Shown here: piece by piece, positions 8,154 to 29,900 of the stretch | How positions within the stretch are numbered: the stretch's first letter is position 1 | Layout of the letters: every line of letters begins with the position of its first letter | Assembly: GCA_028699255.1 (NCBI GenBank) | Contig: JAQVUX010000006.1 | Span: 89,928-153,927 of the forward strand | Length of the DNA: 64,000 nucleotides | Direction: 5' to 3' | From: Candidatus Omnitrophota bacterium | GTDB lineage: Bacteria; Omnitrophota; Gorgyraeia; 2-01-FULL-45-10 | Position numbers and translations under genes: made by a program | The notes under the pieces: generated by a model | Seen by the model: only the letters and a program-made list of their open reading frames with translations | What the model was told of the DNA's origin: nothing | The model's database searches: none

Positions 8154-8235
8154 CACGCGAAAGCACTTCGATTTGCATTTTTTAGAATCGTAGTGTATCT
8201 TTATATATGTTGTATAGCATAAGAAAGGGGGCAGT

Positions 8236-8487
8236 ATGAGGTATTTTATGGTTTTGATAGCGGTTGTGGCTCTTTTGGCGTTTGCCGTGCCGGCCAGCGC
8301 GGAGACTTGTTTTAATGAAATGAGTAAGTGCATCCAGACTTTTGGTAAAGGATGCTGTGGCACATGTGGCGCGACTAAGACAGAATGCGCCAAGACATGC
8401 CCGAAGAGCGTAGTAGCGGTAGACGCTTTGGGTAATGACGTGTCGCTCGTTACCGATAATTCAGGGAAATCACAGTTAGGAATATAA
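8236..8487 (+). CDS. Small secreted cysteine-rich protein (8 Cys in ~35 aa), hypothetical
   Basis: Signal peptide then 'ETCFNEMSKCIQTFGKGCCGTCGATKTECAKTCPKS'. Confidence 0.5.
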   Translation: MRYFMVLIAVVALLAFAVPASAETCFNEMSKCIQTFGKGCCGTCGATKTECAKTCPKSVVAVDALGNDVSLVTDNSGKSQLGI

Positions 8488-8513
8488 ACCATTCCTAATA
8501 AAGGTTAGTTATG

Positions 8514-8543
8514 ATGTAGGGCACCTTTAAAGGTGCCCTACAT
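8514..8543 (+). terminator. 30-bp perfect palindrome ATGTAGGGCACCTTT|AAAGGTGCCCTACAT downstream of Cys-rich gene (no T-tract)
   Basis: Seen directly; second small hairpin TTAGGAAT..ATTCCTAA at 8475..8497 overlaps stop codon. Confidence 0.45.
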
Positions 8544-8585
8544 TGTTATTGGATAATTTGATATAAGAGTATATAATAACAAAAT

Positions 8586-9962
8586 ATGACAAAAAAATTC
8601 CTTATCCTCATAGCTATAGCGTTATCTTTAGGCCTGGCGGCTGTAAAGATCGGATTGAATTGTCAACAATCACTGGCGGTGTCGATATTCTCCGCGTCTA
8701 TACTGGGCACGCTTTTCTTCTGGGATTTCCGTCTCAGTTTTGCTTTTATCGGCACATCACTTCTCCTGGCAACCAGGACCATAGATATCGAACATCTCGT
8801 AAGGTTTGCCTCCCTCGACGTTATTTTGTTTTTAGTCTGTATGATGGTGCTTGTGGGAATGCTGAAAGAGGCCAATTTTTTTAATATAATCTCCCACCTT
8901 CTTCTCGGGATAAAGCGCCTTAATTCTTTCAAGTTTATTATAATACTTTCGGCCGTTTCGGCTGTGATGGCCGCAATGGTCGATGAAGTTACATCGATAA
9001 TATTTATGATCGTAGCCGTGCTGGAGATATGCGATCGGCTCGAAATAGACCCGGTGCCGTATCTAATAACATCCGTTCTCGCTACCAATATAGGTTCTTC
9101 CGCGACAGTCTTGGGCAATCCAATCGGCATATTGATAGCCACGAGATCCGGGTTGACATTCGAGGATTTTATAATAAAAGCCGCCCCATTGGCGGCGGTG
9201 TGCCTTATGGTGACGATCGCGATCTGTCTTGTCTGGTACAGGAAATCCTTCGCGCAATTCGATAAGAACATCCGGCGTTTTACGGAGGCCAGGATCGCTT
9301 CCATGGAAAAGCCGATGGTTTTCACTAAAGACCTTAAGATAGGTTTAGCGATATTCGGCGCAACGATCCTTGCAATAGCGCTTCATCACCGTCTCGAGCT
9401 TTTGTGGGGGCTCGGGGCAAATACCATACTTATCGCCGCGCCTCTTATTTCCTGCGGCGGAGTTTTTATCTGGAAACGTAAGAATGCCAGAAAACACGTC
9501 GAGCGGGATGTAGAATGGTGGACGCTACTTTTCTTCATGCTTCTTTTCGCTCAGGCGGGTACGCTCCAATATACCGGCGCTACGGATGAACTGGCAAAAC
9601 GGCTCGCGGGAATGGTTGGGAATAGCCAGACATTTCTTACGGGCGTGATATTATGGATATCGGCCATAGGTTCCAGTATTCTGGACAATGTGGTTTTAGT
9701 AGCGGCTTTTATTCCGGTAATCCAGGGTTTTAAAGACATAGCTACGCAATCTTTCTGGTGGGCGCTTCTCTTCGGGGGGTGCCTCGGCGGCAATATAACA
9801 CTTGTCGGCTCAACAGCCAACATAGTAGCCCTCGGCATGTTGGAAAAAGAGAAGAATATACGGATCACCTTCCTGCGATGGTTCGGCATCGGACTGACGG
9901 TGGGCTTATCAACCACTATAGTGGTCTGGCTCGCTCTCACATTTCTGCCTTTTTATAGATGA
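8586..9962 (+). CDS. ArsB/NhaD-superfamily permease (CitMHS-type anion/cation transporter)
   Basis: 458 aa, ~12 TM, internal duplication-like symmetry, 'GSSATVLGNPIGILIA' and 'GGNITLVGSTANIVAL' motifs. Confidence 0.6.
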   Translation: MTKKFLILIAIALSLGLAAVKIGLNCQQSLAVSIFSASILGTLFFWDFRLSFAFIGTSLLLATRTIDIEHLVRFASLDVILFLVCMMVLVGMLKEANFFNIISHLLLGIKRLNSFKFIIILSAVSAVMAAMVDEVTSIIFMIVAVLEICDRLEIDPVPYLITSVLATNIGSSATVLGNPIGILIATRSGLTFEDFIIKAAPLAAVCLMVTIAICLVWYRKSFAQFDKNIRRFTEARIASMEKPMVFTKDLKIGLAIFGATILAIALHHRLELLWGLGANTILIAAPLISCGGVFIWKRKNARKHVERDVEWWTLLFFMLLFAQAGTLQYTGATDELAKRLAGMVGNSQTFLTGVILWISAIGSSILDNVVLVAAFIPVIQGFKDIATQSFWWALLFGGCLGGNITLVGSTANIVALGMLEKEKNIRITFLRWFGIGLTVGLSTTIVVWLALTFLPFYR

Positions 9963-10867
9963 AAAAAATCATCATCTTTTTATTCATTGCCTTAGCTATA
10001 ACCGCGCTCGTATTTTCATACGACCGTTTTCAGAAAATATCGGCGGAGCGCGCCCGGATAATTGCGAAACGTGCCGTTGCGTGGGAGCGGTTGAAGCATA
10101 ATATAAACAGACAAACCCGGGGATATAAAGGCACAGCGGCTATAGTGATACAGGATATTAAGACCGGATGGCGGATAGAGTCTTGTGAATACAAAGTAAT
10201 GCCGTCGGCAAGCCTGGTCAAGATACCCGTAATGATGGCGTATTTCAGCGCGGAAAAAGAAGGCAGGCTAAGTTTTGATGATATAATAATATTAAGAAGG
10301 GCCGATAAGACCGACGGCTCCGGGAAGTTGAAAGATATGGTGGCCGGGTCGAAACACAGGATACGGGACCTTATCTATCTGATGATAACCGAGAGCGATA
10401 ATACGGCCGCTAATATTCTGATAAACCGTTTGGGGCTTGAAGAGCTTAACGGTTATTTTGCGAAGCTCGGTCTTAAAAATACCAACCTATCGCGCAGAAT
10501 GATGGATTTTAAATCACGCAGGGCGGGTATAGAAAATTATACAACCGCTTCCGACATGGCGTATCTTTTGGAAAAACTGTATCGCGGCAAGTTTATAGAC
10601 AAAGATATTTCGAATAAATGCCTGGCGCTTTTGGCGGAGCAGAAAGTAAACGACAGGATACCTAAAAAATTACCGCCTGCCACTACGGTCGCTCACAAGA
10701 CCGGACTGGAGAACGGCATATGCCACGACGTTGGTATCGTCTATACACCCAAAGGTGATTTTATAATATGTGTCCTGACAAAACATAAATACACTACGGC
10801 CAGGCCTACAAAAAGGCTGATATCGCAACTGTCGCTTCTTACGTATAACTATTACAGCGGATTATGA
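9959..10867 (+). CDS. Class A beta-lactamase-like serine hydrolase
   Basis: S-x-x-K ('SLVK'), 'SDN' ('ESDNTAAN') and 'KTG' ('HKTGLENG') motifs in correct order/spacing; signal anchor. Confidence 0.75.
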   Translation: MKKIIIFLFIALAITALVFSYDRFQKISAERARIIAKRAVAWERLKHNINRQTRGYKGTAAIVIQDIKTGWRIESCEYKVMPSASLVKIPVMMAYFSAEKEGRLSFDDIIILRRADKTDGSGKLKDMVAGSKHRIRDLIYLMITESDNTAANILINRLGLEELNGYFAKLGLKNTNLSRRMMDFKSRRAGIENYTTASDMAYLLEKLYRGKFIDKDISNKCLALLAEQKVNDRIPKKLPPATTVAHKTGLENGICHDVGIVYTPKGDFIICVLTKHKYTTARPTKRLISQLSLLTYNYYSGL

Positions 10868-10870
10868 TGC

Positions 10871-11353
10871 ATGAGAAAACGGAATGTATTTGATGCTATA
10901 ACCGGTTTTTTCAGGCTTATATACGAGAAGCTTGTAAAGATCGACGACACCCCGCAGAAAATAGCTTCCGGGTTCGGCATTGGCGTTTTTGCCGGTGTAT
11001 TGCCGATGGCCGGGCCCATAGCGGCCGTATTCCTGGCGGTACTTTTCAAGGTTAATCGCGCCGCCGCACTTTTGGCCGCTCTTATAACCAATACATGGAT
11101 AAGTTTCGTAATATTTTTATTTTCCGTTAAAATAGGCGCTTTTATTTTTGGCGTCGACGGCTCGGCCATACAACTACAATGGGCGGAGCTTTTAAAAGAT
11201 TTTCATCTATCGGGATTATTTAAATTATCGGCTATGAGGATCGCTCTTCCCGTTATAACAGGGTATCTCGTTATGGCGCTATTTTCTGCGGGAACGGCTT
11301 ATGTTATGATTCTTACGGTGATGAAGTTTATTAAAAATAACGGAAAGTCCTAA
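10871..11353 (+). CDS. DUF2062-family small membrane protein
   Basis: '...TPQKIASGFGIGVFAGVLP...' pattern typical of DUF2062. Confidence 0.5.
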   Translation: MRKRNVFDAITGFFRLIYEKLVKIDDTPQKIASGFGIGVFAGVLPMAGPIAAVFLAVLFKVNRAAALLAALITNTWISFVIFLFSVKIGAFIFGVDGSAIQLQWAELLKDFHLSGLFKLSAMRIALPVITGYLVMALFSAGTAYVMILTVMKFIKNNGKS

Positions 11354-15876: not shown

Positions 15877-16260
15877 ATGAGAATCGCGAAAGTTTTAAAA
15901 ATCGGCATTCTGATCTTATTAGTGGTGGCTCTGGCTGGTTATGCATGGCCCGGGTTAGTTATAAGTGAAGGCGTGGCAAGCTATTATTCATACGAATGCG
16001 CCAGATTGCCGATGGCAAACGGGAAACCGTTCGATCCGGAAAACAGAACATGCGCCAGCTGGTTCTACGATTTTGGCACGGTACTGATAGTGAAAAGCCT
16101 TGATACGGGTTTGTCTACGGAAGTTGTGGTTACTGATAGAGGGCCTAATAAGCGGCTCGTAAGAGAAGGAAGGATAATCGACCTCTCCAAAAGGGCATTC
16201 CAGGATATCTGCAGGTTGGAAAAAGGGCTCACCAGAGTTGCTATTATCGTTAAAGAATGA
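15877..16260 (+). CDS. RlpA-like double-psi beta-barrel (DPBB) lipoprotein-like protein
   Basis: 'ASYYSYECARLPMANGKPFD...VVVTDRGP' characteristic of RlpA/expansin-like DPBB_1. Confidence 0.7.
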   Translation: MRIAKVLKIGILILLVVALAGYAWPGLVISEGVASYYSYECARLPMANGKPFDPENRTCASWFYDFGTVLIVKSLDTGLSTEVVVTDRGPNKRLVREGRIIDLSKRAFQDICRLEKGLTRVAIIVKE

Positions 16261-16325: not shown

Positions 16326-16351
16326 AAAATTCCACCCCGGGGTGGAATTTT
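16326..16351. promoter_or_regulatory. 26-bp perfect palindrome AAAATTCCACCCC|GGGGTGGAATTTT abutting a putative -35 (TTGACT 16355..16360) of the coiled-coil/ParA operon
   Basis: Seen directly; 18-bp core TTCCACCCCGGGGTGGAA recurs at 61260..61281. Confidence 0.5.
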
Positions 16352-16436
16352 ACTTTGACTTACGCTTGAGATATGGTGTAAAATACCTTATTAAAATAAA
16401 GAAGTTTCTTCGTTTCGCTTGAGGAGGGGGTACCGA

Positions 16437-16757
16437 ATGCTGGATATAGGTTTGGCCAATATTACGATGTTCTTTGTGATAATAGGAATATGCCTGATTT
16501 TCATCATTACGTGGATAATCAAGTCCGAAGCCAGGATAAATGTTTGCAAAGATGAAATAAAGAAATTAAAAACTAGCCTTGATTCTTCCGAGCGCGAGAG
16601 GTTTGTCCTTTCCGAGAAAATCGTAAATCTCGAATCCGGTCGTTCTTCCGATAAGCTTGGCGAGGCCGAAGCGCTTAAAGCGGAAAACGATGCCCTTAAG
16701 CGGGAATTAGCCGCCGCGAAATCATCGTTGGAAGAGGTCTATAAGGCGTTAAGTTAA
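16437..16757 (+). CDS. Membrane-anchored coiled-coil protein (start moved to ATG 16437 with GGAGGGGG RBS)
   Basis: N-terminal TM helix then heptad-rich K/E/L segment. Confidence 0.5.
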   Translation: MLDIGLANITMFFVIIGICLIFIITWIIKSEARINVCKDEIKKLKTSLDSSERERFVLSEKIVNLESGRSSDKLGEAEALKAENDALKRELAAAKSSLEEVYKALS

Positions 16758-16758
16758 T

Positions 16759-18357
16759 ATGGAAATTAGCGAAATAAAACAGAAGATAATGGCAAGGATC
16801 GAGGAAGAGAAGTCCAGGTCCTCCGGCAAGAAAAATCCCCTGAACCTGGATGCGCTATCTTCTAAGATGGGGCGCCCAAAAGAAGATCTGCTGAAGCTTT
16901 TCAATAAAGACGCCAAGGTCGCCTCGCCGCCACCGGTGAGTGTTAAGAACCCCACCCCTGCCCATCATGAAAAACTGAGCGAGCTTGAAGCCGAAAACAT
17001 CCGCCTTAAAAAGATACAGGAAGATGCCCGCGCCAAGAGCGACACGCTTTTGAACGAGATAGAAGAAAAAGACAGGGCCATAGTTGAATTGCAGGATAGG
17101 CTTAAGAGAGAATCCATAAGCCTTATAAAAGACAGCGAAAAAGAAAAATCCCTCATAAATACAGCGATAGAAAAATCTATCTCCGAATACCGCAATAAAC
17201 TTACCGCGCTTGAATCCGAAAATAAGTCGCTAAAACAGACCCATGCCGGCGCGCTTCAGAAGAATGAGGGTATATTTCTACAGATATCCCAGAAAGATAA
17301 AGAGATCGCCGAGCTTAAAAAGAAGATACAGAGCGACGTCGACGAAATAGATAAGAATAAGAAGCTGAAGCGCTTGCACGAGGATTCCTTAAAACAGAAC
17401 GACAATCTTTTAATACGTCTCGAAGAAAAAGATGCGGAGATAGTCGGCTTAGAGAAGAAATTGCAGGAGGCGCTCGAGCGTTCCAAAAAGATAAAAGAGC
17501 ATGAAAAGGCCGTCGAGGAACATCGCGCCGAGCGGGACAAAGCCGCCGCCAATATGGAAAACTTGCGCTCGAAACTCTACGCCGCCACCAAAGAGCTGAA
17601 AGAGCAGGCCGGACGGATAGCCCAGATGGAAGATACGCTGAAACACAGGGAGAAGCGCCTTGCCGACAGTGACAAGGTCTATAAAAATCTGGAAAACGAA
17701 AAGAACGCGATAGCGCTCAAACTGCAGGCGTCAGAGGAAGCCGCGAGGGGCCTCGAAGATAAAGTAAAGGCCGTGATTGCCGAATTGGAGGCAAAAGAAA
17801 AACGCGTCGTCGATGCCGAAAAGAACGCTATTAAAAATATCGAGGCGGCCAGGAAAGAGATGGCTCTGGAGGTGCAGGCGGTCGACAGAAATAAGAAGGC
17901 CCTCGAAGGCAAGATCGCCCAGTTGAATATAGAGTTGGAGGCGAAGAACAGGCGGATAGAAGAGACGGAAGGGGCCAACAACGAGCTGGACGCTCTGGCG
18001 AAGGAGGCGGCTATTAAACTGCATGCCGCCGAAGACGCTAAAGCCGATCTGGAAGAGAAGATGCGGGAAAACGAAAACGAACTGGTCAATATCGGTAAAA
18101 AACACGATACCGAAAATGCGGCCGCCGAAGATAAAATTGCCGGCATGAACTCCGAGATAGAATCGCTCAAGACTGTTATAAAGGACAAGGAGAATGCGGA
18201 AGAGGAGCTTAGGGAAAATATCACGCGCCTCGAAACGGAAATAGAAGCCCGTGATAAAAAGATACAGACGGACGTAAAATACTGCGAAGATGTAGTCAGG
18301 GAAGTTAACGATCTCAGACAGAAGATAAAGGCATATCGCCTTAAATCAGTGAAATAG
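16759..18357 (+). CDS. Long coiled-coil protein (532 aa), hypothetical
   Basis: Almost entirely K/E/L/A heptad repeats; stop overlaps GTG start of ParA gene. Confidence 0.6.
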   Translation: MEISEIKQKIMARIEEEKSRSSGKKNPLNLDALSSKMGRPKEDLLKLFNKDAKVASPPPVSVKNPTPAHHEKLSELEAENIRLKKIQEDARAKSDTLLNEIEEKDRAIVELQDRLKRESISLIKDSEKEKSLINTAIEKSISEYRNKLTALESENKSLKQTHAGALQKNEGIFLQISQKDKEIAELKKKIQSDVDEIDKNKKLKRLHEDSLKQNDNLLIRLEEKDAEIVGLEKKLQEALERSKKIKEHEKAVEEHRAERDKAAANMENLRSKLYAATKELKEQAGRIAQMEDTLKHREKRLADSDKVYKNLENEKNAIALKLQASEEAARGLEDKVKAVIAELEAKEKRVVDAEKNAIKNIEAARKEMALEVQAVDRNKKALEGKIAQLNIELEAKNRRIEETEGANNELDALAKEAAIKLHAAEDAKADLEEKMRENENELVNIGKKHDTENAAAEDKIAGMNSEIESLKTVIKDKENAEEELRENITRLETEIEARDKKIQTDVKYCEDVVREVNDLRQKIKAYRLKSVK

Positions 18358-19178
18358 TGACGACACCTATAGCTATAAAGCAGTTGTTCCTTAATTACAA
18401 AGGCGGTACGGGGAAGACGAGTATATCCTCCGCGTACGGTTATTGCCTGGCGGGCATGGGCAAGCGCGTCCTTATGGTGGATCTCGACGCCCAGGCGCAC
18501 CTGACGGCATGTTTAAACCATAATGATGCGGCGCGTCCGGATAAAAGTTTATATAGCATTATGATAAACGGCGGCAATGTCTCCGATATCATAAGGCCTA
18601 CATCGCTTCCTTCCATGCACGTTATCCCGTCGTCGCTCTCGCTGTCCGCAATGGAAGTGCCATTGTTTAAAATGCACCTGAGGGAATTTCGCCTGCGCCA
18701 GGTGCTCAAGCCCGTAGAAAAAGATTACGACTACATTATTATAGACTCCGCGCCGAATATAAACCTCCTGGGCCTTAACGCCATCCTTGCTTCCGACGAA
18801 ATATTAATACCGCTCTTGGCCGATTTCCTTTCATTCCATGGCTTGAAGTTGCTTATGGAAACGCTTGCCTCTATCGAGACAGATTTCGGATTTTATCTGA
18901 GGAATATAAACATATTCCTGAACCGCTTCAACGCGCAGTACCCTATATGCTCCGAATGTAAAGAAGCGGTGCATAAATTCTATCCGGAATACGCGCTGGA
19001 GACGGTTATACGAGAATCGCACGAGATAATAGACGCTTCAAGCACGGGCAAATCGATATTCGAGCTTTACCCGGAATCAAAAGTGGCCTCGGATATAATG
19101 AGCCTGGTACTGGAAGTAAACGATGAGAAGCTCGGGGATGCCCCAAACCGGAGAATTAAATATGAAGAAAAAGTTTGA
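18357..19178 (+). CDS. ParA/MinD-family P-loop ATPase (no N-terminal HTH)
   Basis: Deviant Walker A 'KGGTGKTS', 'VLMVDLDAQ', Walker B 'IIIDSAP'. Confidence 0.8.
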   Translation: MTTPIAIKQLFLNYKGGTGKTSISSAYGYCLAGMGKRVLMVDLDAQAHLTACLNHNDAARPDKSLYSIMINGGNVSDIIRPTSLPSMHVIPSSLSLSAMEVPLFKMHLREFRLRQVLKPVEKDYDYIIIDSAPNINLLGLNAILASDEILIPLLADFLSFHGLKLLMETLASIETDFGFYLRNINIFLNRFNAQYPICSECKEAVHKFYPEYALETVIRESHEIIDASSTGKSIFELYPESKVASDIMSLVLEVNDEKLGDAPNRRIKYEEKV

Positions 19179-19701
19179 AGACAATGTAGCGGCCGATATA
19201 CCGAAGACAAAATTGCACGAGCCGAACCTGCCGTGGAAATTGACCGAAGACGAAGTCGGGCAGATATCCCCCGGTAACGAAGAGTTCAAAGATGCTATAA
19301 GCGGCACGCCGCCGCTTAAGACACGCGCGCCATTTTTGATACTTCTGGTCGTGGGCATATTCGGCATCACCACATATATGATATCGAGCGGCATTGTGGA
19401 AAATGGGAAGATACACGACAATATGTCTAAGGCCCAGGCCGAGCTTTCCGCCGCGCAGTTGAACCTGGTAAAGACGGTTGCCGAAAAGGACGCCATAAAT
19501 AAAAATTCTGCCCAGCTTGAAAAAAAAGTCAGTGATCTGATGGCGCAGAAGAAGCTTTTCGCGAATGTCATAGAAACTCTTACGAGGAAGGGCGAGGACA
19601 TCGATGCGATCCCGTCCGCGCCGGTACTTACGATGACACAGCCGGTTAATGCTTCTTCCGATAATACCGCTGTAGATTCACGGACAGCGCAAAACAGATA
19701 G
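19162..19701 (+). CDS. Membrane-anchored coiled-coil protein (probable start ATG 19162; ORF track start 19123 overlaps ParA)
   Basis: TM helix 'FLILLVVGIFGITTYMI' then coiled-coil; GGAG RBS before 19162. Confidence 0.5.
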   Translation: MKKKFEDNVAADIPKTKLHEPNLPWKLTEDEVGQISPGNEEFKDAISGTPPLKTRAPFLILLVVGIFGITTYMISSGIVENGKIHDNMSKAQAELSAAQLNLVKTVAEKDAINKNSAQLEKKVSDLMAQKKLFANVIETLTRKGEDIDAIPSAPVLTMTQPVNASSDNTAVDSRTAQNR

Positions 19702-19710: not shown

Positions 19711-22452
19711 ATGTTAAAACCTATGCCGAAGATTTTTATAAGAAGTGTGGTTATATTATCGGTATCGGTATTTGCTGTATCTTTTGCCTGTGCCCAGGAA
19801 AGCTCATTCTATCAGCTTAATCAGAAATCCGCCGAATTCGCACGCCAGGGCAGATACGACGAATCTCTCCAATTTGCCAGGCAGGCCATTGAAACGGCAA
19901 AGAAGGAATTTGGCCCGTATCATGACAATGTAGCCATGGCGCTTAATACTCTCGCGGCCATATATACTTCCCAGGGAAAATATTCTAAAGCGGAAAAGGC
20001 TCTAAAAAGAGTCCTCGCTATAAGGACGCTCGCCGTAGGGGATACGGTAGTGAGCAAAAATTATTCCGATATTGCCACGGCTATGCGCAACCTGGCTAAA
20101 CTTTACGCGGAGGCGGGCAAATATACTCGCGCCGAGAAATTTATAAAACGCGCCATAAAGATGGATATCAAAGCCGCAGGGGAAAATTACCCACAGCGTC
20201 AGGCGGACCTGAAATTTTTAATAGGCGTGTGCGAGACGCAGGGGCGGGCCGCGGACGCGCGGGACGCGTATAAACTGCTTCTCGATAATTATGAAACTTC
20301 CGGTGCGGCCGACAATCCATCAACGGCAATTGCGGCGAACAATCTCGCAAACATATACCTGGTAGAAAAGAAATACGCGGAAGCTGAAATGTTGCTCAAA
20401 CGCGCTCTCGCGATAAACGAAAAGATGCTCGCTCCGGATGACGCGGGTGTAGCCGTATCTTTGAATAACCTTGCCGCCGTGTATATCAGCGAGCTCAAAT
20501 ATGCAGAGGCGGAGACTCTTTTATTAAGATCGCTGGCGATATCCGAGAAAATATATGGGAAGGAATCCCCGGAGATAATAAGCGGACTAAATAATCTTGC
20601 CACCGTCTATTCATGCCTGAAGAAGAACGCCGAAGCCGAAGCGCTTTATAAAAGGGTGGTGGAAATAAGCGAAACCTCGCCTAAGATGAACAGGGAAGAG
20701 CTTGCCAAGGCGTTGAATAATCTCGCGGCTATATATTCTTACGGAAAACGGTACGCAGAAACAGAACCGATTCTTAAAAAAGAACTTGAGCTTAATGAAA
20801 GCCTGCATGGAGCCAATGATCTGTCGGTGGCGATATCGCTTAATAATCTCGCGGCCGCTTATCTTTTTCAGGCTAAGATAGATATGTCCGAGCCTGCTTT
20901 CAAGCGCGCTCTCGCGATAGGCGAAAGATGCATTGCTGAAAATCCATCAATAGCCGCGGCGTCGTATGCGGGACTCGGCAAGATATACGAATCACAGGGC
21001 AAATATTCCGAGGCTGAAGGTTTCTACGTAAAGATGGTAGAGCTCTACAATAAGACTTTCGATAAATATTCGCCGGAAATAGCCTCAGCCTCCAGCGATC
21101 TTGCCAGGATATACATGGCGCAGAAGAAATACTCCGAAGCTGAAGAATTGCTCAAACGTTGCCTGGAGATAAACGAGCATAATCTCGGGGCGGATCATCA
21201 TACGGTAGCCGTATCCTTGAATAATCTTGCCGCCGCGTATAGCAATGAAGGTAAATATTCGGAATCCGAGCCTCTCTTGATAAGAGCCCTGGAGATCGAC
21301 GAGAAAGCGCTTGGACAGGATTCTCCGGAGATAGTCACCGGCCTGAATAATCTCGCCACAGTGTATTCGTATCAGAATAAATATCCGGAAGCGGAGGCTC
21401 TTTACAAAAGGGCGCTTCTCATAAACGAGAAGGCTTATGGGCCCGACAGCGCGGAATTGGCCGGCTGGCTTAACAGGGTAGCGACGGCTTATTCCTACCA
21501 AAAAAAATATACTCACGCTATAAGCGCGTTAAAGCGCGCGATAGAGATAAATGAAAAGAATTTTGGACCAGATAACCGCGCCGCCGCAGTTTATCTTAAT
21601 AATCTCGCCGCCACCTACTGCAATTGTGGTAAATATCCGGAAGCGGAGCCGCTTATATTGAAGGCGCTTGCTATTGACAGGGCTTCTTGCGGTGAAGATT
21701 CGATCGAAGTTTCCTCCGATTTAAATAACCTGGCTACAGTTTATTCGAACGAGGGTAAATATCAGGAGGCCGAAGGCGTCCTGATCGGCGCGTTGGACAT
21801 GGATGAAAGAGTGTTTGGCATAATGCATTCGGAAACGATGACGACACTCAGGAACCTGGTGAATCTATACGAATCCCAGGGCAAATATTCCGAGGCTGAA
21901 GGTTTCTACGTAAAGATGGTAGAGCTCTACAATAAGACGTTCGATAAATATTCGCCGGAAATAGCCTCAGCCTCCAGCGATCTTGCCAGGATATACATGG
22001 CGCAGAAGAAATACTCCGAAGCCGAAGAATTGCTCAAACGTTGCCTGGAGATAAACGAGCATAATCTCGGGGCGGATCATCATACGTTAGCCGTATCCTT
22101 GAATAATCTCGCCGCCGCGTACAGTAATGAAGGTAAATATTCGGAATCCGAGCCTCTCTTGATAAGAGCCCTGGAGATCGACGAGAAAGCGCTTGGACAG
22201 GATTCTCCGGAGATAGTCACCGGCCTGAATAATCTCGCCACAGTGTATTCGTATCAGAATAAATATCCGGAAGCGGAGGCTCTTTACAAAAGGGCGCTTC
22301 TGATAAGCGAGAAGGCTTATGGGCCCGACAGCGCGGAACTCGTGGGGACATTGACCAACATGTCAATTTTATATGAAAAGACCGCACGTGGTGAAGAAGC
22401 CAGGGCTTTTGAGGAACGCGCCAGAAGTATATACGAAAAGCGGCGTGGATAG
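19711..22452 (+). CDS. TPR-repeat protein (kinesin-light-chain-type TPR_10/12 units), signal peptide
   Basis: Many repeats of 'NLAxxYxxxGKYxEAEPLxxRALxI'. Confidence 0.8.
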   Translation: MLKPMPKIFIRSVVILSVSVFAVSFACAQESSFYQLNQKSAEFARQGRYDESLQFARQAIETAKKEFGPYHDNVAMALNTLAAIYTSQGKYSKAEKALKRVLAIRTLAVGDTVVSKNYSDIATAMRNLAKLYAEAGKYTRAEKFIKRAIKMDIKAAGENYPQRQADLKFLIGVCETQGRAADARDAYKLLLDNYETSGAADNPSTAIAANNLANIYLVEKKYAEAEMLLKRALAINEKMLAPDDAGVAVSLNNLAAVYISELKYAEAETLLLRSLAISEKIYGKESPEIISGLNNLATVYSCLKKNAEAEALYKRVVEISETSPKMNREELAKALNNLAAIYSYGKRYAETEPILKKELELNESLHGANDLSVAISLNNLAAAYLFQAKIDMSEPAFKRALAIGERCIAENPSIAAASYAGLGKIYESQGKYSEAEGFYVKMVELYNKTFDKYSPEIASASSDLARIYMAQKKYSEAEELLKRCLEINEHNLGADHHTVAVSLNNLAAAYSNEGKYSESEPLLIRALEIDEKALGQDSPEIVTGLNNLATVYSYQNKYPEAEALYKRALLINEKAYGPDSAELAGWLNRVATAYSYQKKYTHAISALKRAIEINEKNFGPDNRAAAVYLNNLAATYCNCGKYPEAEPLILKALAIDRASCGEDSIEVSSDLNNLATVYSNEGKYQEAEGVLIGALDMDERVFGIMHSETMTTLRNLVNLYESQGKYSEAEGFYVKMVELYNKTFDKYSPEIASASSDLARIYMAQKKYSEAEELLKRCLEINEHNLGADHHTLAVSLNNLAAAYSNEGKYSESEPLLIRALEIDEKALGQDSPEIVTGLNNLATVYSYQNKYPEAEALYKRALLISEKAYGPDSAELVGTLTNMSILYEKTARGEEARAFEERARSIYEKRRG
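20985..21465. repeat. Intragenic ~480-bp direct repeat, copy A (in TPR gene)
   Basis: ~98% identical to 21867..22347, offset 882 bp (in frame, 294 aa). Confidence 0.85.
21867..22347. repeat. Intragenic ~480-bp direct repeat, copy B (in TPR gene)
   Basis: See copy A. Confidence 0.85.
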
Positions 22453-22461: not shown

Positions 22462-23625
22462 TTGTATGGTTATAAGGTATACTGGAAAAAGTTAGTTACT
22501 AACCTGGTTAAGAAAATGAAAAAATTAAAAAAATATCAATTTAGTTTTCAGGAACTTTCAGATAAGGATATCAAAAGCCTTAAAATACTGGAGCTTATAA
22601 CCAGGAAGGGCGTGATCTCCCGTACGGAGATATCCAAAGCCACAGGTATAAATATAGTTTCGACATCTAATTATATTAAAGAATATATAGCTGATAAACT
22701 CGTCCTGGAAAAGGGTTTTGATGTATCGACCGGTGGCAGGAAACCGGAGCTCATAGAACTGGATAAGTCCGACAACCGTGTGATTGGCGCGCATATAGCC
22801 CAGGAATATATTTACATTACGCTGACCAATATGGGGTTGGATATTATAGAGAAAATTCGGATACCGCGGCCTAATGGAAAAATAAAAGATGCCATCGAGC
22901 CGATGTGTAAAACTATAGAAGAAATGGCGCGAAAAGCGGGATTGGCCGCCGGCGGCATAAAAGCCGTAGGATTAGGGGTAAAGATTCCTGCGGGTGATCA
23001 CGGGGTGATAGGTAAAAAGATCGAAGATATTCTCGGTATCGAGACGTTTGTCGGAGACGAGCCTCTATGCGCGGCCTTTGCCGAGAAGACGCTGAACAAG
23101 GATGCTCTTGCCGGCGATATTCTCTATATATATTCCGATGCGGGCAACGCTGTAGTTGTCAAAAACGATGGCAGTATAGTTTCGCGTAGTGAATCAAAAT
23201 ATCTTGGCCCCTGGAGCGACGAATTCGGCATACTGCGCCTTGCTAAATACGACGTTGCCAGAGGCGTAGGAACATCCATGGTAGAGCTTGCCCATGGCAG
23301 GATCGATAATATGTCCATCAGGACGGTGATAGATGCCGCCGCCGGTAGAGATGAGGTCGCCTTAAGCATTATGCGTTCCGTCGGCATGATATTAGGACTG
23401 CGTATCGCTTACTTAGTCAACATCTTCGGCCCAAAGACGGTTGTGATCGGCGGAGGGTTTGAGGCGGCCGGAGACCTTATTCTCGAGCCGATAAAAAAGA
23501 TGATCGGAAAATTAGCGCTCAAAAATTATTCTGGTACAACGGTTATGCCGGGGATGTTTAGCGAGGATGCCGTGAGCATAGGCGCGGCAACGCTTGCGGC
23601 CCGGGAGATTTTTCTTGAGGCCTAA
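22462..23625 (+). CDS. ROK-family protein (N-terminal wHTH + sugar-kinase-like domain; NagC/XylR-type regulator); alternative start ATG 22516
   Basis: 'ISRTEISKATGINIVSTSNYIKEY' HTH, Gly-rich ROK core 'VVIGGGF'. Confidence 0.7.
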   Translation: MYGYKVYWKKLVTNLVKKMKKLKKYQFSFQELSDKDIKSLKILELITRKGVISRTEISKATGINIVSTSNYIKEYIADKLVLEKGFDVSTGGRKPELIELDKSDNRVIGAHIAQEYIYITLTNMGLDIIEKIRIPRPNGKIKDAIEPMCKTIEEMARKAGLAAGGIKAVGLGVKIPAGDHGVIGKKIEDILGIETFVGDEPLCAAFAEKTLNKDALAGDILYIYSDAGNAVVVKNDGSIVSRSESKYLGPWSDEFGILRLAKYDVARGVGTSMVELAHGRIDNMSIRTVIDAAAGRDEVALSIMRSVGMILGLRIAYLVNIFGPKTVVIGGGFEAAGDLILEPIKKMIGKLALKNYSGTTVMPGMFSEDAVSIGAATLAAREIFLEA

Positions 23626-23637: not shown

Positions 23638-24000
23638 ATGCTTATGACAGAAGAAAAAAGTTGCCGTATATGCGGTAAGCCGTTCCTTCCCAATAAATAT
23701 CGTCCGAACCAGACGATATGTTCCTCTCTTGAGTGCCAGTACCAGCGCCAGCTTGAAAATATGAAGAAATGGCGCGATAGAAATCCGCATTATTTCAAAT
23801 ATAAAGAGACCCGGGATTCTTCCTGGAAGGAGACATGCCGCCAGCGTTCGCTCGATTGGCGCAAGAAACACCAGGAATATCTTAAACTTTATCGGGAAGA
23901 GCACCGTCAGCGCCATCGCGAGTACATGAGAGACTACATGAGGGAATATAGAAAACAGAATGGCTTGGCGGAAAAGAATATCCAGGATAGCAGTAAATAA
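23638..24000 (+). CDS. Zinc-ribbon (CxxC...C) basic protein, hypothetical
   Basis: 'CRICGKPF...CSSLEC' then R/K/E-rich tail. Confidence 0.45.
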   Translation: MLMTEEKSCRICGKPFLPNKYRPNQTICSSLECQYQRQLENMKKWRDRNPHYFKYKETRDSSWKETCRQRSLDWRKKHQEYLKLYREEHRQRHREYMRDYMREYRKQNGLAEKNIQDSSK

Positions 24001-24012: not shown

Positions 24013-25683
24013 TTGAATACAAATAAAGCTGTGTTTCTTTTCGGAATGTTATTTTTTTTCCTTGCCATGTTTGGGGTAGGGGAAAGTCATGTTTTTGCCG
24101 CCACGACCTCAGGTGAGCCGGTAAAAGAGCTACAGCCGGCGGTAAAAAATGTAAACAGCGAAGTCGTTCCGAATGAGAAACGGATGACGCTTAATATCGA
24201 CCGAGGCAACTCAGCCGGCGAGAAAAAATTTACTATAGGTATGACCCCTCCCGCAAGCATGATGGCCAGCAAGAAAGGCTCTCCCTCCGATCCCGGCACC
24301 GGCGTTGTGCGTGGCCTTAAAAGCAAAAGGCCGATCGGCGGCATATATAACCTGCAAGAGTGTATAGATATCGCGGTGAACAATCACTTGCCTTTACAAA
24401 TAGCGAAGAAGAGCGTCAGGCTTGCCGAGATGCGCCTCTTTGAAGCGCGTCGTAATCTGTTACCTTCGGCATCGATCGATTATCAGGAATACCACGGTAG
24501 GATAAGCGGGCAGGCATATGTCGGCCGCAAACAGATATTAGAAGGGCAACAGCCGATATTCCGCGGCGGTGAACTATTCTATACCATGAAGCAATCCGAA
24601 GTGAACCTGGCTATAACAAAAAATGATTATGGCAGAATACGCAACGACCTTGTGCTTCAGATCAAAAAAGCCTATTACACACTGGCTAAAGCAAAAGGTA
24701 ATATGCGGATGCAGGAGGATCTGGCAAAAGAGGTTGAGAGGATCCTCGGTATGGTTACCAGGCAAGCCGAAGCGGGAATAATTTCAAAAATTGAGGTTTT
24801 GAATGTTTCATCCCAGGCCAGCCAGGCGAAGTACCAGCTCGCCTCAGCCGAAGGAGATCTCTCTATAGCGCGTCTCATTCTTAAACAGGCTATGAATGTG
24901 GATCCTAAAGAAGAAGTGGATGTTAAAGAGATTGCGGAATTTAAAAAAGTCGAAGTGGATTACGAAAAGGCGCTCAGCATAGCCACGGTGAACCGTCCGG
25001 AAATGAAGATAAACTCCATGATGATAGAGTACTATAATTATGGCAAAGGCATAGCTAAAGCGAAGTTCTGGCCGAAAGTGGATCTTCTGGGTTCATGGGG
25101 GCTGGCAAAGGAAGAGATAGCGCCCGACGATGTCGATACGTCCAATGCTAACGATGCCGACCAGAAACTTGGACAGCAATGGTACGCGGGTTTAAAAGTC
25201 GGAGTTCCCCTCTGGGGTTCATCCGGAGAATGGTCGCTGACGAAAGAGCAGTGGGTGCCTGTAGTCAGTACGTACCACGGCACATCAGCTACCACGATGG
25301 ATATGAAATTAAAGATATTGGATAAGCTCGATTCGTACTCAGAAAAGCAACTATCGGAAATAGATTTTGACAAGGCCAGGCAGGAATTCAATAAGATAAG
25401 ACAGGATGTGACCCTCGAGGTTAGCGAAGGATGTTTTAATTACCAGAAAGCCGTGATCCAGGCGGATACGGCGGCGAATAAAGTGAAATATCAGTCGAGC
25501 GACCTGGAATTAGTTAAACTCAAGCGCGCGCTTGACGAGGCCCAGGACTCGAATGTAATAGAGAGCATGATAAGGCTGGCGCAGGAAAAATTCGGATACT
25601 TGCAGGCGCTGGCGGATTGCCACATAACTATCGCCGGGATAAATAAGGCTATAGGCGTGGAAGACTATTACAAAGACGAATAA
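24013..25683 (+). CDS. Outer-membrane efflux protein (TolC/OEP family), TTG start
   Basis: Signal peptide; two-repeat OEP-like helical/beta pattern; first gene of efflux operon. Confidence 0.7.
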   Translation: MNTNKAVFLFGMLFFFLAMFGVGESHVFAATTSGEPVKELQPAVKNVNSEVVPNEKRMTLNIDRGNSAGEKKFTIGMTPPASMMASKKGSPSDPGTGVVRGLKSKRPIGGIYNLQECIDIAVNNHLPLQIAKKSVRLAEMRLFEARRNLLPSASIDYQEYHGRISGQAYVGRKQILEGQQPIFRGGELFYTMKQSEVNLAITKNDYGRIRNDLVLQIKKAYYTLAKAKGNMRMQEDLAKEVERILGMVTRQAEAGIISKIEVLNVSSQASQAKYQLASAEGDLSIARLILKQAMNVDPKEEVDVKEIAEFKKVEVDYEKALSIATVNRPEMKINSMMIEYYNYGKGIAKAKFWPKVDLLGSWGLAKEEIAPDDVDTSNANDADQKLGQQWYAGLKVGVPLWGSSGEWSLTKEQWVPVVSTYHGTSATTMDMKLKILDKLDSYSEKQLSEIDFDKARQEFNKIRQDVTLEVSEGCFNYQKAVIQADTAANKVKYQSSDLELVKLKRALDEAQDSNVIESMIRLAQEKFGYLQALADCHITIAGINKAIGVEDYYKDE

Positions 25684-25718
25684 GGTATAGATAACCGGAT
25701 TTCGAAGAACTTAAGGAG

Positions 25719-26969
25719 ATGAAGATGGAAAATCCTGGCGACAAGCTTACAATGGATATTGAACCAAAAAAGAAGGGTTCGAAGAAGCGGCTGATAGTAA
25801 TATTACTCGTCGTGGTTGTAGGTGTTATAGTCCTGGCGCGCATGGGCGCGAATATTCAGAACGCGCTTTTTAAAAAGAAGACTCCGGCCGGGAAATCCGC
25901 CGCTATAAAATTTGAAGAGGAAGCGACTCCTGTAAAGGCGTTCAAGACGAAGAAGACGGAGTTTAAAGATACACTGCCGGCCATAGGCAGTGTCAAAGGC
26001 TTTAAAGAGATAGAGCTTAAGTTCCAGGTGGCCGGGATCATAGAGAGTTTCAATTTTGAGGAAGGCGAGAAAATACAGGAAGGCGATATCATAGCCAGCC
26101 TTGTGCAGAAGGACGCTCTTTTAAAACTGAAGTACGCGGAGATAGAGCTTAGTAAGAACCAGAAATTATTCGATATCGGCGCGATAAATCCCATCAAACT
26201 TGAGCAGGGAAAACTTGAATACGAATCCGCTAAATCGGAACTTGATAAAACCAATATATATGCCATTTCGAACGGGCTTTTGGGTTCCAGGATAATAGAT
26301 GCCGGCAGTTATGTTACTCCGAACGATAGAGTAGGCATTTTTGTCGATATAGATAAAGTGTACGCCGAATTCAGTATAATAGAAAAGGACGTACCGAAAG
26401 TGTCTCTGGGCCAGAAGGCGGAGGTGTTTGCTGACGCGTACCCGGCCAAGGTTTTTAATGGTTCCGTTGACAGGATATCCCCAATAATAGAGGGGAGGAG
26501 CCGCACTGAAAACATAAAGATAGAGCTCGATAACAAGGATGGCTTCCTGCGGCCCGGCATGTTCGTTCGCGCCCAGATAGCGACTTATGACAAGAAAGAT
26601 GTGATAGTGGTGCCTTCGTCCGGATTAAAGAAGAAAGACAATGATTACTTTGTGTATGTCGTACAGAAGGAAGAGCCGAAGCCCGTCGAGGCCGCGCCGG
26701 CGCCGAAGGTAAAATCGCAGAAACAGGTATGGCCTTTCGGTAAGAAGAAAGAAGCCGCGAAGGAAGAAGCAAGGCCGGCTGTCCCCGAAAAAGCGCCGGA
26801 GTTAGGCCTTGTCGAAATAAGAAAAGTCAAACCCGGATATATGACTCAGGACTTAGTAGAGATAGACGAGGGATTGAACGAAGACGAGATAATAATCATA
26901 GAGATACAGGAAGAGTTTAAGGATAAGTCTAAAGTAGAGATTTCCGAGATGCAGGAAGGACTGATTTAA
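25719..26969 (+). CDS. Efflux RND periplasmic adaptor (membrane fusion protein, HlyD-like)
   Basis: N-terminal TM anchor, lipoyl/beta-barrel pattern 'GSVKGFKEIELKFQVAGII', AAGGAG RBS. Confidence 0.8.
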   Translation: MKMENPGDKLTMDIEPKKKGSKKRLIVILLVVVVGVIVLARMGANIQNALFKKKTPAGKSAAIKFEEEATPVKAFKTKKTEFKDTLPAIGSVKGFKEIELKFQVAGIIESFNFEEGEKIQEGDIIASLVQKDALLKLKYAEIELSKNQKLFDIGAINPIKLEQGKLEYESAKSELDKTNIYAISNGLLGSRIIDAGSYVTPNDRVGIFVDIDKVYAEFSIIEKDVPKVSLGQKAEVFADAYPAKVFNGSVDRISPIIEGRSRTENIKIELDNKDGFLRPGMFVRAQIATYDKKDVIVVPSSGLKKKDNDYFVYVVQKEEPKPVEAAPAPKVKSQKQVWPFGKKKEAAKEEARPAVPEKAPELGLVEIRKVKPGYMTQDLVEIDEGLNEDEIIIIEIQEEFKDKSKVEISEMQEGLI

Positions 26970-26978
26970 GGCGGTATA

Positions 26979-29900
26979 ATGAATTTAGCGAAATTTTCGG
27001 TAGAGCGCCCGGTAACGATCATGATGGTCGTTGCCGGAATAATAATATTCGGCATCGTTTCCCTGAGCCTGCTTCCTCAGGAACTTTTGCCGCAGATCGT
27101 CTATCCGCAGTTGACGGTAGTTACCCCATATGAAAATGCTGCACCCGAAGAGATAGAGACCCTAATAACAAAACCGATAGAAGAAGCTATCGGTACCGTA
27201 GCCGGTGTAAAGAGGATCACATCCATATCCAAGGAAGGGCTGTCGCTGGTAATAGCGGAATTCGGCTGGAACCAGAATATTAATTTCGCCGCACTCGGCA
27301 TGCGCGAAAAGATAGACCTTATAAAAGAACGCCTTCCAAGAGAAGCCGAAGAGCCGATAGTCCTGCCGTATAACCCGTTTGATAAGCCCATCCTCATATT
27401 AAGTATAACAAGTTCCAGGGCCGACCGCTCGCCGCTTGTTTTGCGTGAATTGACCAGAAGGATGATAAAGGACGAGGTTGAGAAAGTCGAGGGCGTGGCA
27501 TCGGCGACCATTTCCGGCGGATTGGAGCGGGAAATAGAGGTCGAGATAAACCGCGATAAGCTCGAATCCAGGCGCATACCCATTACAGATGTGTCAAAAG
27601 CGATATCGAGCTCAAACTTAAACTATCCTGCCGGTACGATAAAGGAGAGTTTCTACGAATATCTTATAAGAACGCTGGGCGAATTCGAACACGTTCGCGA
27701 TATCGGTAACGTCGCCATCGGTTCGAGCTCTCCCGAAGACAACGAGCCTTATGCGTATCGAGGCGCCGAAGCTTCCCGCGAGAAAGGCGTTGTAGCGAAA
27801 GATAAACGGCTTATATATTTAAAAGACGTTGCGCAGATAATCGACGACGTGAAAGAGAGGACCAGCTTCTCTCGTTTTAACGGCAAAGAGAATATTTCCA
27901 TCGCCATCCAGAAACAGGCGCTGGGCAATACCGTAAAGACGATCGACCGTGTCAAAGCCAAGATCCGTGAACTTAAAAGCGATCTTCCAAAAGACATGGC
28001 GATAGCGATTGTTTATGACCAATCGATATTTATCAAAGATTCCATCATAGGTGTGTGGGATGCCGCCTGGCAGGGCGGCGTACTCGTCTTCGCGATACTT
28101 TTCTTCTTCCTGCGGAACCTTTACAGCGCTTTTATCGTTACGCTCATGATACCGATATCCGTCATGGCGACATTCGTACTCATGTTCTTCACGGGCATAT
28201 CCATAAACATGATGTCGCTTTTTGGTCTTGCTTTCGGTATCGGGCACTTAGTCGATACCGCTATTGTCGTCATGGAAAACATATTCCGCCATATGCAGGC
28301 AGGCGAAGATAAAAAAGAGGCGGCCGTAGTAGGTACCAACGAAGTCTTTATCGCCGTGACGGGCTCGATACTCACCAACGTCGTTGTGTTTCTGCCTCTC
28401 GTTTTTGTCGTCGGTGTATTCGGCCAGATAGTGCGTGACCTGGCCATGACGCTGACCTTCGCGCTCTTAGCTTCGCTTTTAGCGTCCATGACGCTGGTTC
28501 CTCTTCTTGCTTCGAGAGGCATAAGCGTAGGCAAAACTCACTCTGTGTCGGAGTCCGGCGTCGGCAGGTTCTACAGTTCCATACTCGATAGATTTATAAG
28601 ATCGAAAGCGAGATATCTTCTTATTACATTTATAGTATTCATGGTATCGCTCGTCTTGTTCTCATTTTTGGATAAAGAGCTCATGCCTAAGGTCGACCAG
28701 GGGCAATTTACGATAAAAGTGAATATGCCGGCAGGTACGCGGCTCGGTACGACGAACACCGTGACGGAACGCATCGAAAAATTATTACTCTCCATTCCCG
28801 AGGTGGAAACGATAAACGTAACGGTAGGTTCGACAAAAGAGTCGACGACGCGCAGTATTATCGAGCGGCTCAATTATAATCAGGCGGAGATAGTCGTTAC
28901 ATTAAAGAAGAAGCGTAAACTTAAATCCTCCGCGGTTGTGCAGATAATAAAGAATAAGCTCGCCACCATAAATTTGGACGCCGCGCGCATAGAGTACATT
29001 CTGCAGGAGAACGTTTTCGCTTCGGGTATGGCCACCTCCGCGCCGGTTACGGTAGAATTGAAAGGCAACGACCTCAAAACGCTGGAGAAGCTGACGCGCG
29101 AAGTCGAAGCCGGCCTGAGTACGACTAAAGGAATATACGGTATAAAGGATGATCTGTCCGAGCCCTCTCCGGAAGTGAAAGTTTATATCGATAAAGACAA
29201 GGCGGCCCTCTACGGACTTTCCGTAACAGATATCGCCCAGACATCCCTTATCGGGCTTAAAGGGTATGTCGCGAGTAAATTAAAAGAGAAGGGCGAAGAG
29301 TTTGATATAAGAGTGCGCCTGAGAGAAAAAGACCGCGATGATTTCAATAAGCTGGCAAACCTGAATATACAATCCCCCTCGGGGGTGAAAGTGCAGTTAG
29401 GTAGTGTGGCAACTTTCGGTAAAGGTAAAGGGCCGAGCGAAATACGCAGGATAAACCAGGAGAGGGTCATCTCCGTTTACGCGAATATTTACGATCGGCC
29501 GCTTAAAGACATAACCTCCGATGTTACGACCATGATAAACCGTCTCGACATACCCAGGAATTATTTCGTGAAACTTACCGGCGAGTCGGAAGAGATGAAG
29601 GCTTCCTTCGAAAGCATAAGGAACGCCATAATAGCGGCGTTCCTGCTCGTGTACATGATAATGGCCGCGCTCTTCGAATCGCTCTGGCAACCTTTCATAA
29701 TAATGTTCACGATCCCGCTCTCGGTAATAGGCGTGGCGTGGGCGCTATTTTTCACCGGTACAAGTATAAACGCTTATGTGCTTATAGGTTTTGCCATGCT
29801 CGGAGGTATAGTAACGAATAACGCCATAGTGCTTATCGACTGCATAAACCTTTTCCTTGCCAAAGGCATGAATCTTCTGGAAGCGGTTGTGGGCGCTACT

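Follow-up and report, generated by a model that had tools for sequence, protein, structure and literature searches.

A conserved five-gene cassette around a ParA-type ATPase

Within a 64,000-nucleotide (nt) stretch of contig JAQVUX010000006.1 from a Candidatus Omnitrophota metagenome-assembled genome (MAG), hereafter the window, a gene for a ParA/MinD-type ATPase is packed among genes for coiled-coil proteins on the + strand. The four open reading frames (ORFs) of the original prediction, here called A, B, ParA, and D, are all present as described, with transmembrane (TM) segments in A and D, no helix-turn-helix (HTH) in the ATPase, and a TAGTG overlap between B and ParA; a fifth gene, E, follows. 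The five packed genes are real and not chance ORFs, because at least 16 Omnitrophota loci have orthologs of all five in conserved order.

Gene A (16437 to 16757, + strand) encodes 106 amino acids (aa), with an N-terminal TM anchor and a coiled coil that ends in an invariant C-terminal SLEEVYKAL. Its ATG start is preceded by a ribosome-binding site, GAGGAGGGGG, and an alternative TTG start lies at 16419. Residues ~5 to 27 form a single hydrophobic segment, and residues 38 to 106 are heptad-like. Most aligned orthologs have no Lys or Arg ahead of the TM segment and at least three just behind it, a charge bias that probably places the coiled coil in the cytoplasm. Homology of A to FtsB/DivIC was rejected: the score against the Pfam DivIC model (E = 4e-4, 20.5 bits) falls under the 28.9-bit cutoff, and by its charge bias A would be oriented the other way.

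Gene B (16759 to 18357, + strand) encodes a Glu/Lys-rich, cytoplasmic coiled-coil scaffold of 532 aa. Heptad-like windows cover 58% of the protein (residues 88 to 505), as opposed to a mean of no more than 7% in shuffled sequences, so the description of B as entirely coiled coil holds for that stretch and fails for the first ~87 residues, which are not coiled coil. Conserved blocks comprise a basic amphipathic N-terminal helix (EISEIKxKIxxxIE), a central LRSKLYAATKE..., and a C-terminal RDKKIQ..KYCE, and an HTH-like part of the N terminus is conserved in the closer clade only. Ortholog lengths range from 428 to 811 aa. Pfam and NCBIfam scans gave B no family match and revealed neither an HTH nor any DNA-binding domain in A, B, or D.

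The third gene (18357 to 19178, + strand) encodes the ATPase itself, a PomZ-related protein of the ParA/MinD type with 273 aa (MDD3906102.1 in NCBI, from a Candidatus Omnitrophota MAG). The TAG stop of B and the GTG start of ParA have one base in common, and the ATPase matches Pfam AAA_31 (E = 1.2e-44). Gene D (19162 to 19701, + strand), which overlaps ParA by 17 nt, encodes a bitopic protein of 179 aa with an N-terminal peptide, MKKKFEDNVAADIPKTKLHEPNLPW, that resembles the ATPase-activating peptide of PomX (NPEP), a TM segment at residues ~56 to 78, and a long helix at residues 79 to 148. An AlphaFold2 model built from a 41-sequence alignment contains a short helix at residues 3 to 10 and then one unbroken helix from 56 to 148 with pLDDT above 95, in which the TM segment is continuous with a helix of ~70 residues; the model is consistent with a cytoplasmic peptide and a periplasmic helix 79 to 148. 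A search of D against the PDB returned nothing significant.

Gene E (19711 to 22452, + strand) encodes a predicted secreted protein of 913 aa with TPR_12/TPR_10 repeats and an SPase I-type signal peptide (AxA|Q cleavage type), the latter present in the 13 orthologs compared. The gene contains a 300-nt internal repeat, 98% identical between 20984 to 21283 and 21866 to 22165 and spaced by 882 nt (7 units of 126 nt), TPR units having recently been duplicated in tandem.

The A-B-ParA-D order is retained in 13 of 13 loci from species-representative genomes and also in loci L002 to L007. B and ParA, like ParA and D, overlap or abut in all loci examined, and E adjoins D in most lineages but is absent after D in L017 and L020. 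Identity among orthologs is highest for ParA (62 to 82%), followed by D (31 to 67%), E (35 to 63%), A (~45%), and B (~30%). A ParA scan of the species-representative genomes recovered 13 orthologous loci at 61 to 82% identity, and then a gap to 34% or less. At E ≤ 1e-10 there are 1,660 ParA homologs, the best 120 of which are 65 to 99% identical, with every named one from Omnitrophota; in a 50%-identity clustering with 1.84 billion representatives, the whole family falls into one cluster, its next relatives being 40 to 48% identical. The D family has 134 members, all named ones being Omnitrophota hypothetical proteins, with no Pfam domain except PF24319, recorded for two members. Among named homologs, the cassette is known from Omnitrophota only.

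The ATPase is not a chromosomal Soj

The signature lysine K15, the Walker A lysine K20, and the Walker A' aspartates D42 and D44 of ParA are invariant, and the protein has the deviant Walker A motif KGGxGK[ST] along with the Walker A'/B motifs. Its closest solved homolog is Myxococcus xanthus ParA (MxParA; PDB 8RAY; E = 5e-33, 30% identity), followed by HpSoj and TtSoj. The original prediction had nevertheless placed it among orphan ParA proteins that act with coiled-coil partners and not in chromosome partitioning, and three lines of evidence uphold that placement: the ATPase is not a chromosomal Soj, because parB is missing, the family forms a separate clade, and the DNA-binding columns are nonbasic.

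A Spo0J probe gave no tblastn match at E ≤ 1 in the window and 73 related Omnitrophota loci (1.02 Mb in total), as predicted for parB; the same probe recovered parB directly downstream of a Soj-type gene in 25 non-Omnitrophota loci. (The sequences of Bacillus subtilis Soj and Spo0J and of Escherichia coli MinD served as probes and outgroup only, the Spo0J probe being validated by this control.) In a neighbor-joining tree of 46 sequences with 100 bootstraps, the ParA family is monophyletic (100%) and joins the relatives of 40 to 48% identity (99%), whereas the ParB-linked Soj clade, which includes M. xanthus ParA and B. subtilis Soj, stands apart (90%). Membership in the ParA_partition, MinD, RepA, BcsQ, and BY-kinase families was rejected as well, with all NCBIfam scores far under their cutoffs: minD_bact (TIGR01968) gives 40.1 bits against a cutoff of 212.9; BcsQ (TIGR03371) gives 53.5 bits against 157.85, and the neighborhood has no bcsA or bcsB; and BY-kinase (TIGR01007) gives 38.7 against 108, with the KGG signature lysine present and no Tyr cluster.

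The residues by which ParA proteins contact DNA are replaced throughout the family. In the column of MxParA R235, all 121 members have Glu; in the column of MxParA R238 (Soj R218), 99 have Glu and 22 have Asp; and in that of the "DSR" arginine, the 121 members have D, Q, E, G, A, N, S, or L and never a basic residue. Every aligned ParB-linked Soj has R, R, and R/K in the same three columns. The substitution R238E abolishes nonspecific DNA binding by MxParA (PMC12462528), and K268E reduces DNA binding by PomZ (PMC13170346); by numbering offset, PomZ K268 falls in the column of MxParA R238, where the PomZ-like relative P0244 has Lys. Because the canonical basic columns are nonbasic, and two of them acidic, DNA is probably not the matrix on which ParA works.

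This bears on a further suggestion of the original prediction, a likeness to the ParA proteins of carboxysomes, chemoreceptor arrays, and pole organizers. Those proteins ride on the nucleoid, and in that form the likeness is not supported by the acidic or nonbasic character of the DNA-binding columns here.

Beyond a conserved "EVN," the C-terminal tail of the family is mostly 2 to 4 residues long and not conserved, and by sequence there is no MinD-type amphipathic membrane helix. The pocket that accepts the activator peptide in MxParA is largely retained, five of its six hydrophobic residues being still hydrophobic: L150, L152, L155, and L192 correspond to I135, L137, L140, and F177, which are invariant or nearly so, and V116 corresponds to position 101, which is V, L, or M in most members and Q or F in a minority. 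The sixth, L187, corresponds to an invariant Ser. We infer that ParA would be an active, dimerizing switch that still receives an activator helix, on a surface that is neither DNA nor lipid directly.

Three other ParA-like proteins from Omnitrophota were rejected as Soj candidates. These 719-aa proteins (L065, 3504 to 5663; L072, 9986 to 12145; L073, 3073 to 5232), in which a ParA/MinD-like N terminus apparently precedes a larger, fused C-terminal portion, are TadZ-like by inspection and lie in Tad-pilus-like loci, where putative CpaB/RcpC and secretin genes were called by size and order.

A probable PomX-type activator peptide on a membrane-spanning protein

The N terminus of D, MKKKFEDNVAADIPKTKL, resembles the experimentally defined ATPase-activating peptide of M. 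xanthus PomX, MKKAFEQNVSRAKPRLRL (PMC7993993), also given as MKKAFEQNVSRAKPRLRLGALT. Over residues 1 to 18 of D there are 9 identities in 18 positions, plus K15 and K17 (PomX R15 being K15 in D), and the pairwise BLAST E value is 6e-5; what matches is a short motif, apparent in pairwise BLAST and on visual inspection. Most of the shared positions, namely M1, K2, F5, E6, N8, V9, and P14, are invariant or nearly so among 41 aligned D homologs. D thus appears to carry a PomX-type activator peptide, on a protein that would span the membrane and continue into the periplasm.

The relatives of the ATPase point in the same direction. Relatives P0244 and P0246, among those of 40 to 48% identity, are encoded between a HEAT-repeat protein and a protein with an N-terminal peptide, an Ala/Pro-rich region, and a C-terminal coiled coil; the latter proteins, downstream of P0244 and P0246, begin MKSAFNKNVSKRKPRTRLG and MRKAFSANVSTARPKTRLG, respectively. 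This PomY-PomZ-PomX architecture is that described for Myxococcus (PMC7993993, PMC13170346). The original prediction missed both the PomX-type peptide of D and the clustering of the ATPase with PomZ-like proteins, and its choice of closest relatives is amended to that extent.

The motif recurs elsewhere, with variants heading coiled-coil proteins beside the relatives P0243 and P0245. PomY-PomZ-PomX-like loci occur on metagenomic contigs, and in a Riflebacteria MAG (P0243) a protein with the variant peptide MNNRFDRTLPKKIPKLSEFRP is encoded upstream of ParA, next to hybrid histidine kinases (L143, 4571 to 8342; L146, 3277 to 7190; L144, 4074 to 6086). A sister ParA subfamily (P0241, P0242, and P0245) has a Lys-rich, low-complexity N terminus and a coiled coil fused to the ATPase, with Glu or Asp at the DNA-binding columns. 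At one locus of this subfamily (P0245; L141, 4484 to 6183), the gene after the ParA fusion encodes a soluble coiled-coil protein of 153 aa whose N terminus, MVNRYNEIAEKMPWVKKKENPKKPW, is NPEP-like. Homology of A to the coiled coil of these Lys-rich fusions was rejected (hhalign probability, 13%). PomXYZ has been described as a myxobacterial system (PMC7993993, PMC13170346), and the PomX peptide motif may be wider than myxobacteria.

Proposed mechanism and role

We propose that A-B-ParA-D, usually with E, is an Omnitrophota relative of the PomZ/PomX ATPase-activator system that has been rebuilt on the inner membrane and marks a division or polar envelope site, a reading in which our confidence is evenly balanced. 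ATP-bound ParA dimers would not coat the nucleoid and would be recruited to a membrane-bound B scaffold anchored by A. The cytoplasmic N-terminal peptide of D would trigger ATP hydrolysis and release, producing a local, self-limiting switch, and the periplasmic helix of D and the secreted TPR protein E would couple the site to the periplasm and cell wall. Such a module would most likely define or stabilize a single site on the envelope, where the cell divides or at a pole. A division or polar role is suggested because of the homology to PomXYZ, which positions and stimulates the FtsZ ring (PMC7993993, PMC13170346), because an RlpA-like wall enzyme is encoded next to the cassette, and because FtsZ has been reported in Omnitrophica (PMC5147048), which makes a PomXYZ-like part in division possible.

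Several points weigh against this proposal. D has Ile at the position of PomX K13, one of the two essential residues of the M. xanthus peptide, and an hhalign comparison of the D family with a full-length PomX-like protein returned coiled-coil noise only, leaving the N-terminal match undetected. The PomZ-like label of P0244 and P0246 comes from gene context and not from comparison with the M. xanthus PomZ sequence. No PomY homolog was found, there being no HEAT match in the Pfam-scanned ORFs in and around the cassette, and the likeness of B to the scaffold half of PomX is one of architecture only (a basic amphipathic N-terminal helix and a long, variable coiled coil). The topology of A was read from charge bias alone. 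Other contacts with DNA are possible despite the loss of the canonical basic residues, and R190 is nearly invariant in the ParA family. Finally, the cassette is colinear, with gaps of 9 to 12 nt, with an array of ROK and RND genes that is present in 10 of the 12 loci extending past D, an arrangement that fits other cargo.

If the proposal is correct, the PomZ/PomX ATPase-activator pair has relatives in Omnitrophota, a Riflebacteria MAG, and other uncultured lineages, and the cassette represents a natural ParA system that was converted from DNA-based to membrane- or scaffold-based patterning. It would also offer a handle on the marking of division or contact sites in very small cells, where nucleoid gradients may work poorly. 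A full-text literature search returned no description of the cassette or of the RND-giant gene neighborhood, and nothing on canonical parAB or minCDE in these genomes.

Exporter and giant genes downstream of the cassette

Upstream of A lie an RlpA-like DPBB_1 protein gene (15877 to 16260, + strand; 127 aa; Pfam DPBB_1, E = 6e-12) and a promoter-like site (16355 to 16384, + strand; TTGACT-18-TAAAAT), the latter recognized by consensus match only, at 10 of 12 positions. The DPBB gene is upstream of A in L008 and L010 to L013 and between E and the ROK gene in L014, L100, L102, and L106, shifting between lineages yet staying within the array. Downstream of E, the + strand continues with F (22462 to 23625), a NagC/Mlc-like ROK protein with an N-terminal winged HTH whose position is conserved; G (23638 to 24000), a 120-aa protein with a Cys4 zinc-ribbon-like motif and a basic C terminus; and the four genes H to K (24013 to 33341), identified by profile match and synteny as a TolC-like OEP (H, 24013 to 25683), a membrane-fusion protein (MFP; I, 25719 to 26969), and two RND pumps (J, 26979 to 30128, and K, 30210 to 33341). 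G is the most conserved protein of the array, at 62 to 91% identity across Omnitrophota loci, above ParA, ROK, and the RND pumps, and it always lies between the ROK and TolC-like genes; it has an invariant Cys4 pattern (CxxC...x15...CxxxxC) and the C terminus YLKLYREEHRxRHRxYMRxYMREYRK, with no Pfam, NCBIfam, or PDB match.

Two giant genes complete the window on the + strand. The first (33640 to 61077) encodes a multi-TM protein of 9,145 aa with glucoamylase-like, DUF3131, and starch-synthase-like domains, and has its own perfect promoter at 33538 to 33565, within the 299-nt gap after the second RND gene (RND2). The second, giant ORF 2 (in the region 61207 to 64000), follows a GGAGG with a TTG start at ~61310 and is open-ended, running to the window end and encoding at least ~900 aa; its leader contains a perfect TTGACA...TATAAT promoter. 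Across Omnitrophota, the ROK-Zn-ribbon-TolC-MFP-RND-RND-giant array is conserved (L088 to L140; RND2 45 to 87% identical), and the N termini of the giant ORFs fall into two families. In L120 (1483 to 5576), ROK, G, and OEP are replaced by an outer-membrane beta-barrel, a Wza-like exporter, and a Wzc-like chain-length/BY-kinase protein, directly upstream of MFP-RND-RND-giant. The published context of Omnitrophota giant genes has type II secretion-like loci upstream (10.1101/2023.11.21.568195), and the RND-array neighborhood differs from these.

The genes at positions 152 to 11353, in the upstream part of the window, are unrelated to the cassette. Mostly for transport and resistance, they encode an ArsP permease, a SAM methyltransferase, DsbD_2, an SBF-family transporter, a CpxP/LTXXQ-like protein, a CitMHS transporter, a class A beta-lactamase-like protein, and DUF2062, with an IS200-like Y1 transposase at 1431 to 2105. 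Rfam and tRNA scans of the region found only a tRNA-Arg at 14837, and PADLOC found no match to a defense system.

Alternative explanations

The order of these genes raises another possibility, that the cassette positions or assembles the neighboring TolC-like/MFP/double-RND exporter together with the giant multi-TM protein. TadZ/CpaE and BcsQ, ParA/MinD ATPases that localize envelope-spanning secretion machines and are not known to bind DNA, do as much for pilus and cellulose machines. A to K lie on one strand, with gaps of 9 to 12 nt at E/F, F/G, and G/H that become larger further downstream and with no convincing internal terminator. Ten of the 12 cassette loci extending past D go on to ROK, Zn-ribbon, TolC-like, MFP, and RND genes, including all 10 that reach that far with E, and in 26 of the 30 loci whose sequence extends 3 kb or more beyond RND2, an ORF of ~900 aa or longer starts on the same strand no further than 1.5 kb downstream. 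The DPBB wall enzyme, though mobile, stays inside the array, and D and E are both predicted to reach the periplasm.

The association fails in both directions, however. No cassette precedes about half of the ROK-to-RND-to-giant arrays: in L102 the preceding genes are P-ATPase-DPBB-ROK, in L103 and L137 they are BipA-ROK, and L099, L100, L121, L129, and L138 lack the cassette as well. Conversely, L017 and L020, the most divergent cassette loci, keep A-B-ParA-D without the array. What follows D in these two loci is a hybrid histidine kinase (REC-GAF/PAS-HisKA-HATPase; L017, 4722 to 6470; L020, 2573 to 4744), succeeded in L020 by a Pfam Volactin match (4861 to 5748; E = 1e-70). Volactin is an actin family described from archaea. 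In addition, the giant gene has its own promoter, and the closest characterized homologs work in cell division and not in secretion. Because about half of the arrays lack a cassette and L017 and L020 lack an array, the link that the original prediction drew between the cassette and a giant-protein complex is suggestive, not obligatory: 10 of 12 loci do go on to the array, usually followed by a giant gene.

That prediction had invoked a palindrome shared with the giant gene. The 18-nt palindrome, TTCCACCCCGGGGTGGAA, is real, occurring twice in the window where 0.01 copies are expected, but it is weak evidence for the link. Copy 1 (16326 to 16351; AAAATTCCACCCCGGGGTGGAATTTT) forms a terminator-like hairpin after the DPBB gene, whereas copy 2 (61262 to 61279) lies in the leader of giant ORF 2, between promoter and start and outside the 9,145-aa gene; the two share only the hairpin core. 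The palindrome is absent from orthologous loci, and as a regulatory connection to the giant gene we reject it, since it is present only in this strain and copy 2 belongs to the giant ORF 2 leader.

On balance, positioning of the exporter and giant protein is a live alternative, though unlikely to be the function of the cassette. We give a similarly low standing to its fuller version, in which the cassette would be the control module, in cytoplasm and inner membrane, of a trans-envelope apparatus. In that version a ParA switch would run on a membrane-bound coiled-coil scaffold, not on the nucleoid, and would act by way of D and the TPR protein in the periplasm to set the installation site of the double-RND/TolC exporter and of the giant multi-TM surface proteins. 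One such site could be where these ultra-small cells, as predators or episymbionts, touch their prey or host.

An unorthodox form of chromosome segregation or anchoring is more improbable still; here ParA would act with B as its adaptor in place of ParB, and the chromosome would be tethered to the membrane through A and D, much as with RacA or PopZ. The best solved homologs of the ATPase are indeed chromosomal ParA/Soj proteins (8RAY, HpSoj, and TtSoj), sister subfamilies have N-terminal MerR/HTH_17-like or Lys-rich extensions that suggest contact with DNA, and the N-terminal region of B is basic. Nonetheless, the three canonical DNA-binding columns are nonbasic, two of them invariably acidic; there is no ParB; A, B, and D lack an HTH or DNA-binding domain in the scans, the HTH-like part of the B N terminus being confined to the closer clade; and the family is phylogenetically apart from the ParB-linked Soj. 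Very improbable, finally, is the absence of any dedicated common function, with gene order merely inherited in small, operon-dense genomes and ParA acting with unlinked partners: Omnitrophota genomes are compact, with long codirectional runs, and the cassette flanks vary by lineage, but A, B, ParA, and D stay together at every locus while those flanks change, their start and stop codons overlap or abut, and D places an activator-type peptide beside its ATPase, as in PomX/PomZ loci.

Comparison with known systems

With the ParABS system (Soj/Spo0J), the cassette shares the sandwich-dimer fold with deviant Walker A motif, the best PDB match (8RAY, 30%), and the hydrophobic pocket for an activator helix. 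It differs in that no ParB or parS was noted, the DNA-binding arginines (Soj R189 and R218; MxParA R238) are replaced, and the ATPase belongs to a separate clade. The resemblance to MinCDE lies in an ATPase that would act at the membrane and be activated by the N-terminal peptide of a partner, as proposed here; unlike MinD, ParA has no C-terminal amphipathic membrane-targeting helix, and its neighbors are not minC or minE.

As in the TadZ/CpaE and BcsQ systems, the gene for a ParA/MinD ATPase lies among genes for the TPR and outer-membrane parts of an envelope machine. Unlike those systems, the cassette has no receiver-like N-domain, secretin, synthase, or pilus genes, the BcsQ score is under its cutoff, and the Tad loci of Omnitrophota have their own 719-aa TadZ-like fusion protein.

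The comparison with PomXYZ of M. xanthus (PMC7993993, PMC13170346) is mixed. The column mapped to the DNA-binding residue K268 of PomZ is Glu or Asp here, which is a residue-level test only. The peptide-bearing protein D is bitopic with a periplasmic helix, whereas PomX is cytoplasmic, with an Ala/Pro-rich region and a self-polymerizing coiled coil, and PomX K13 is not conserved. The cytoplasmic coiled-coil scaffold, B, is separate from the peptide protein and has a different N terminus. PomY, which consists of a coiled coil, HEAT repeats, and a winged HTH, has no HEAT-repeat counterpart here, and the cassette has in addition the TM coiled-coil protein A and the secreted TPR protein E. Like PomXYZ, however, the cassette encodes a long coiled-coil scaffold beside the ATPase, with the genes adjacent; the ATPase clusters, at 99% bootstrap, with relatives among which are P0244 and P0246 from PomY-PomZ-PomX-like loci; and the N-terminal motif of the partner, MK(K)xFExNVxxxxP(K/R)x(K/R)L, which is that of the PomX activating peptide, is carried here by D.

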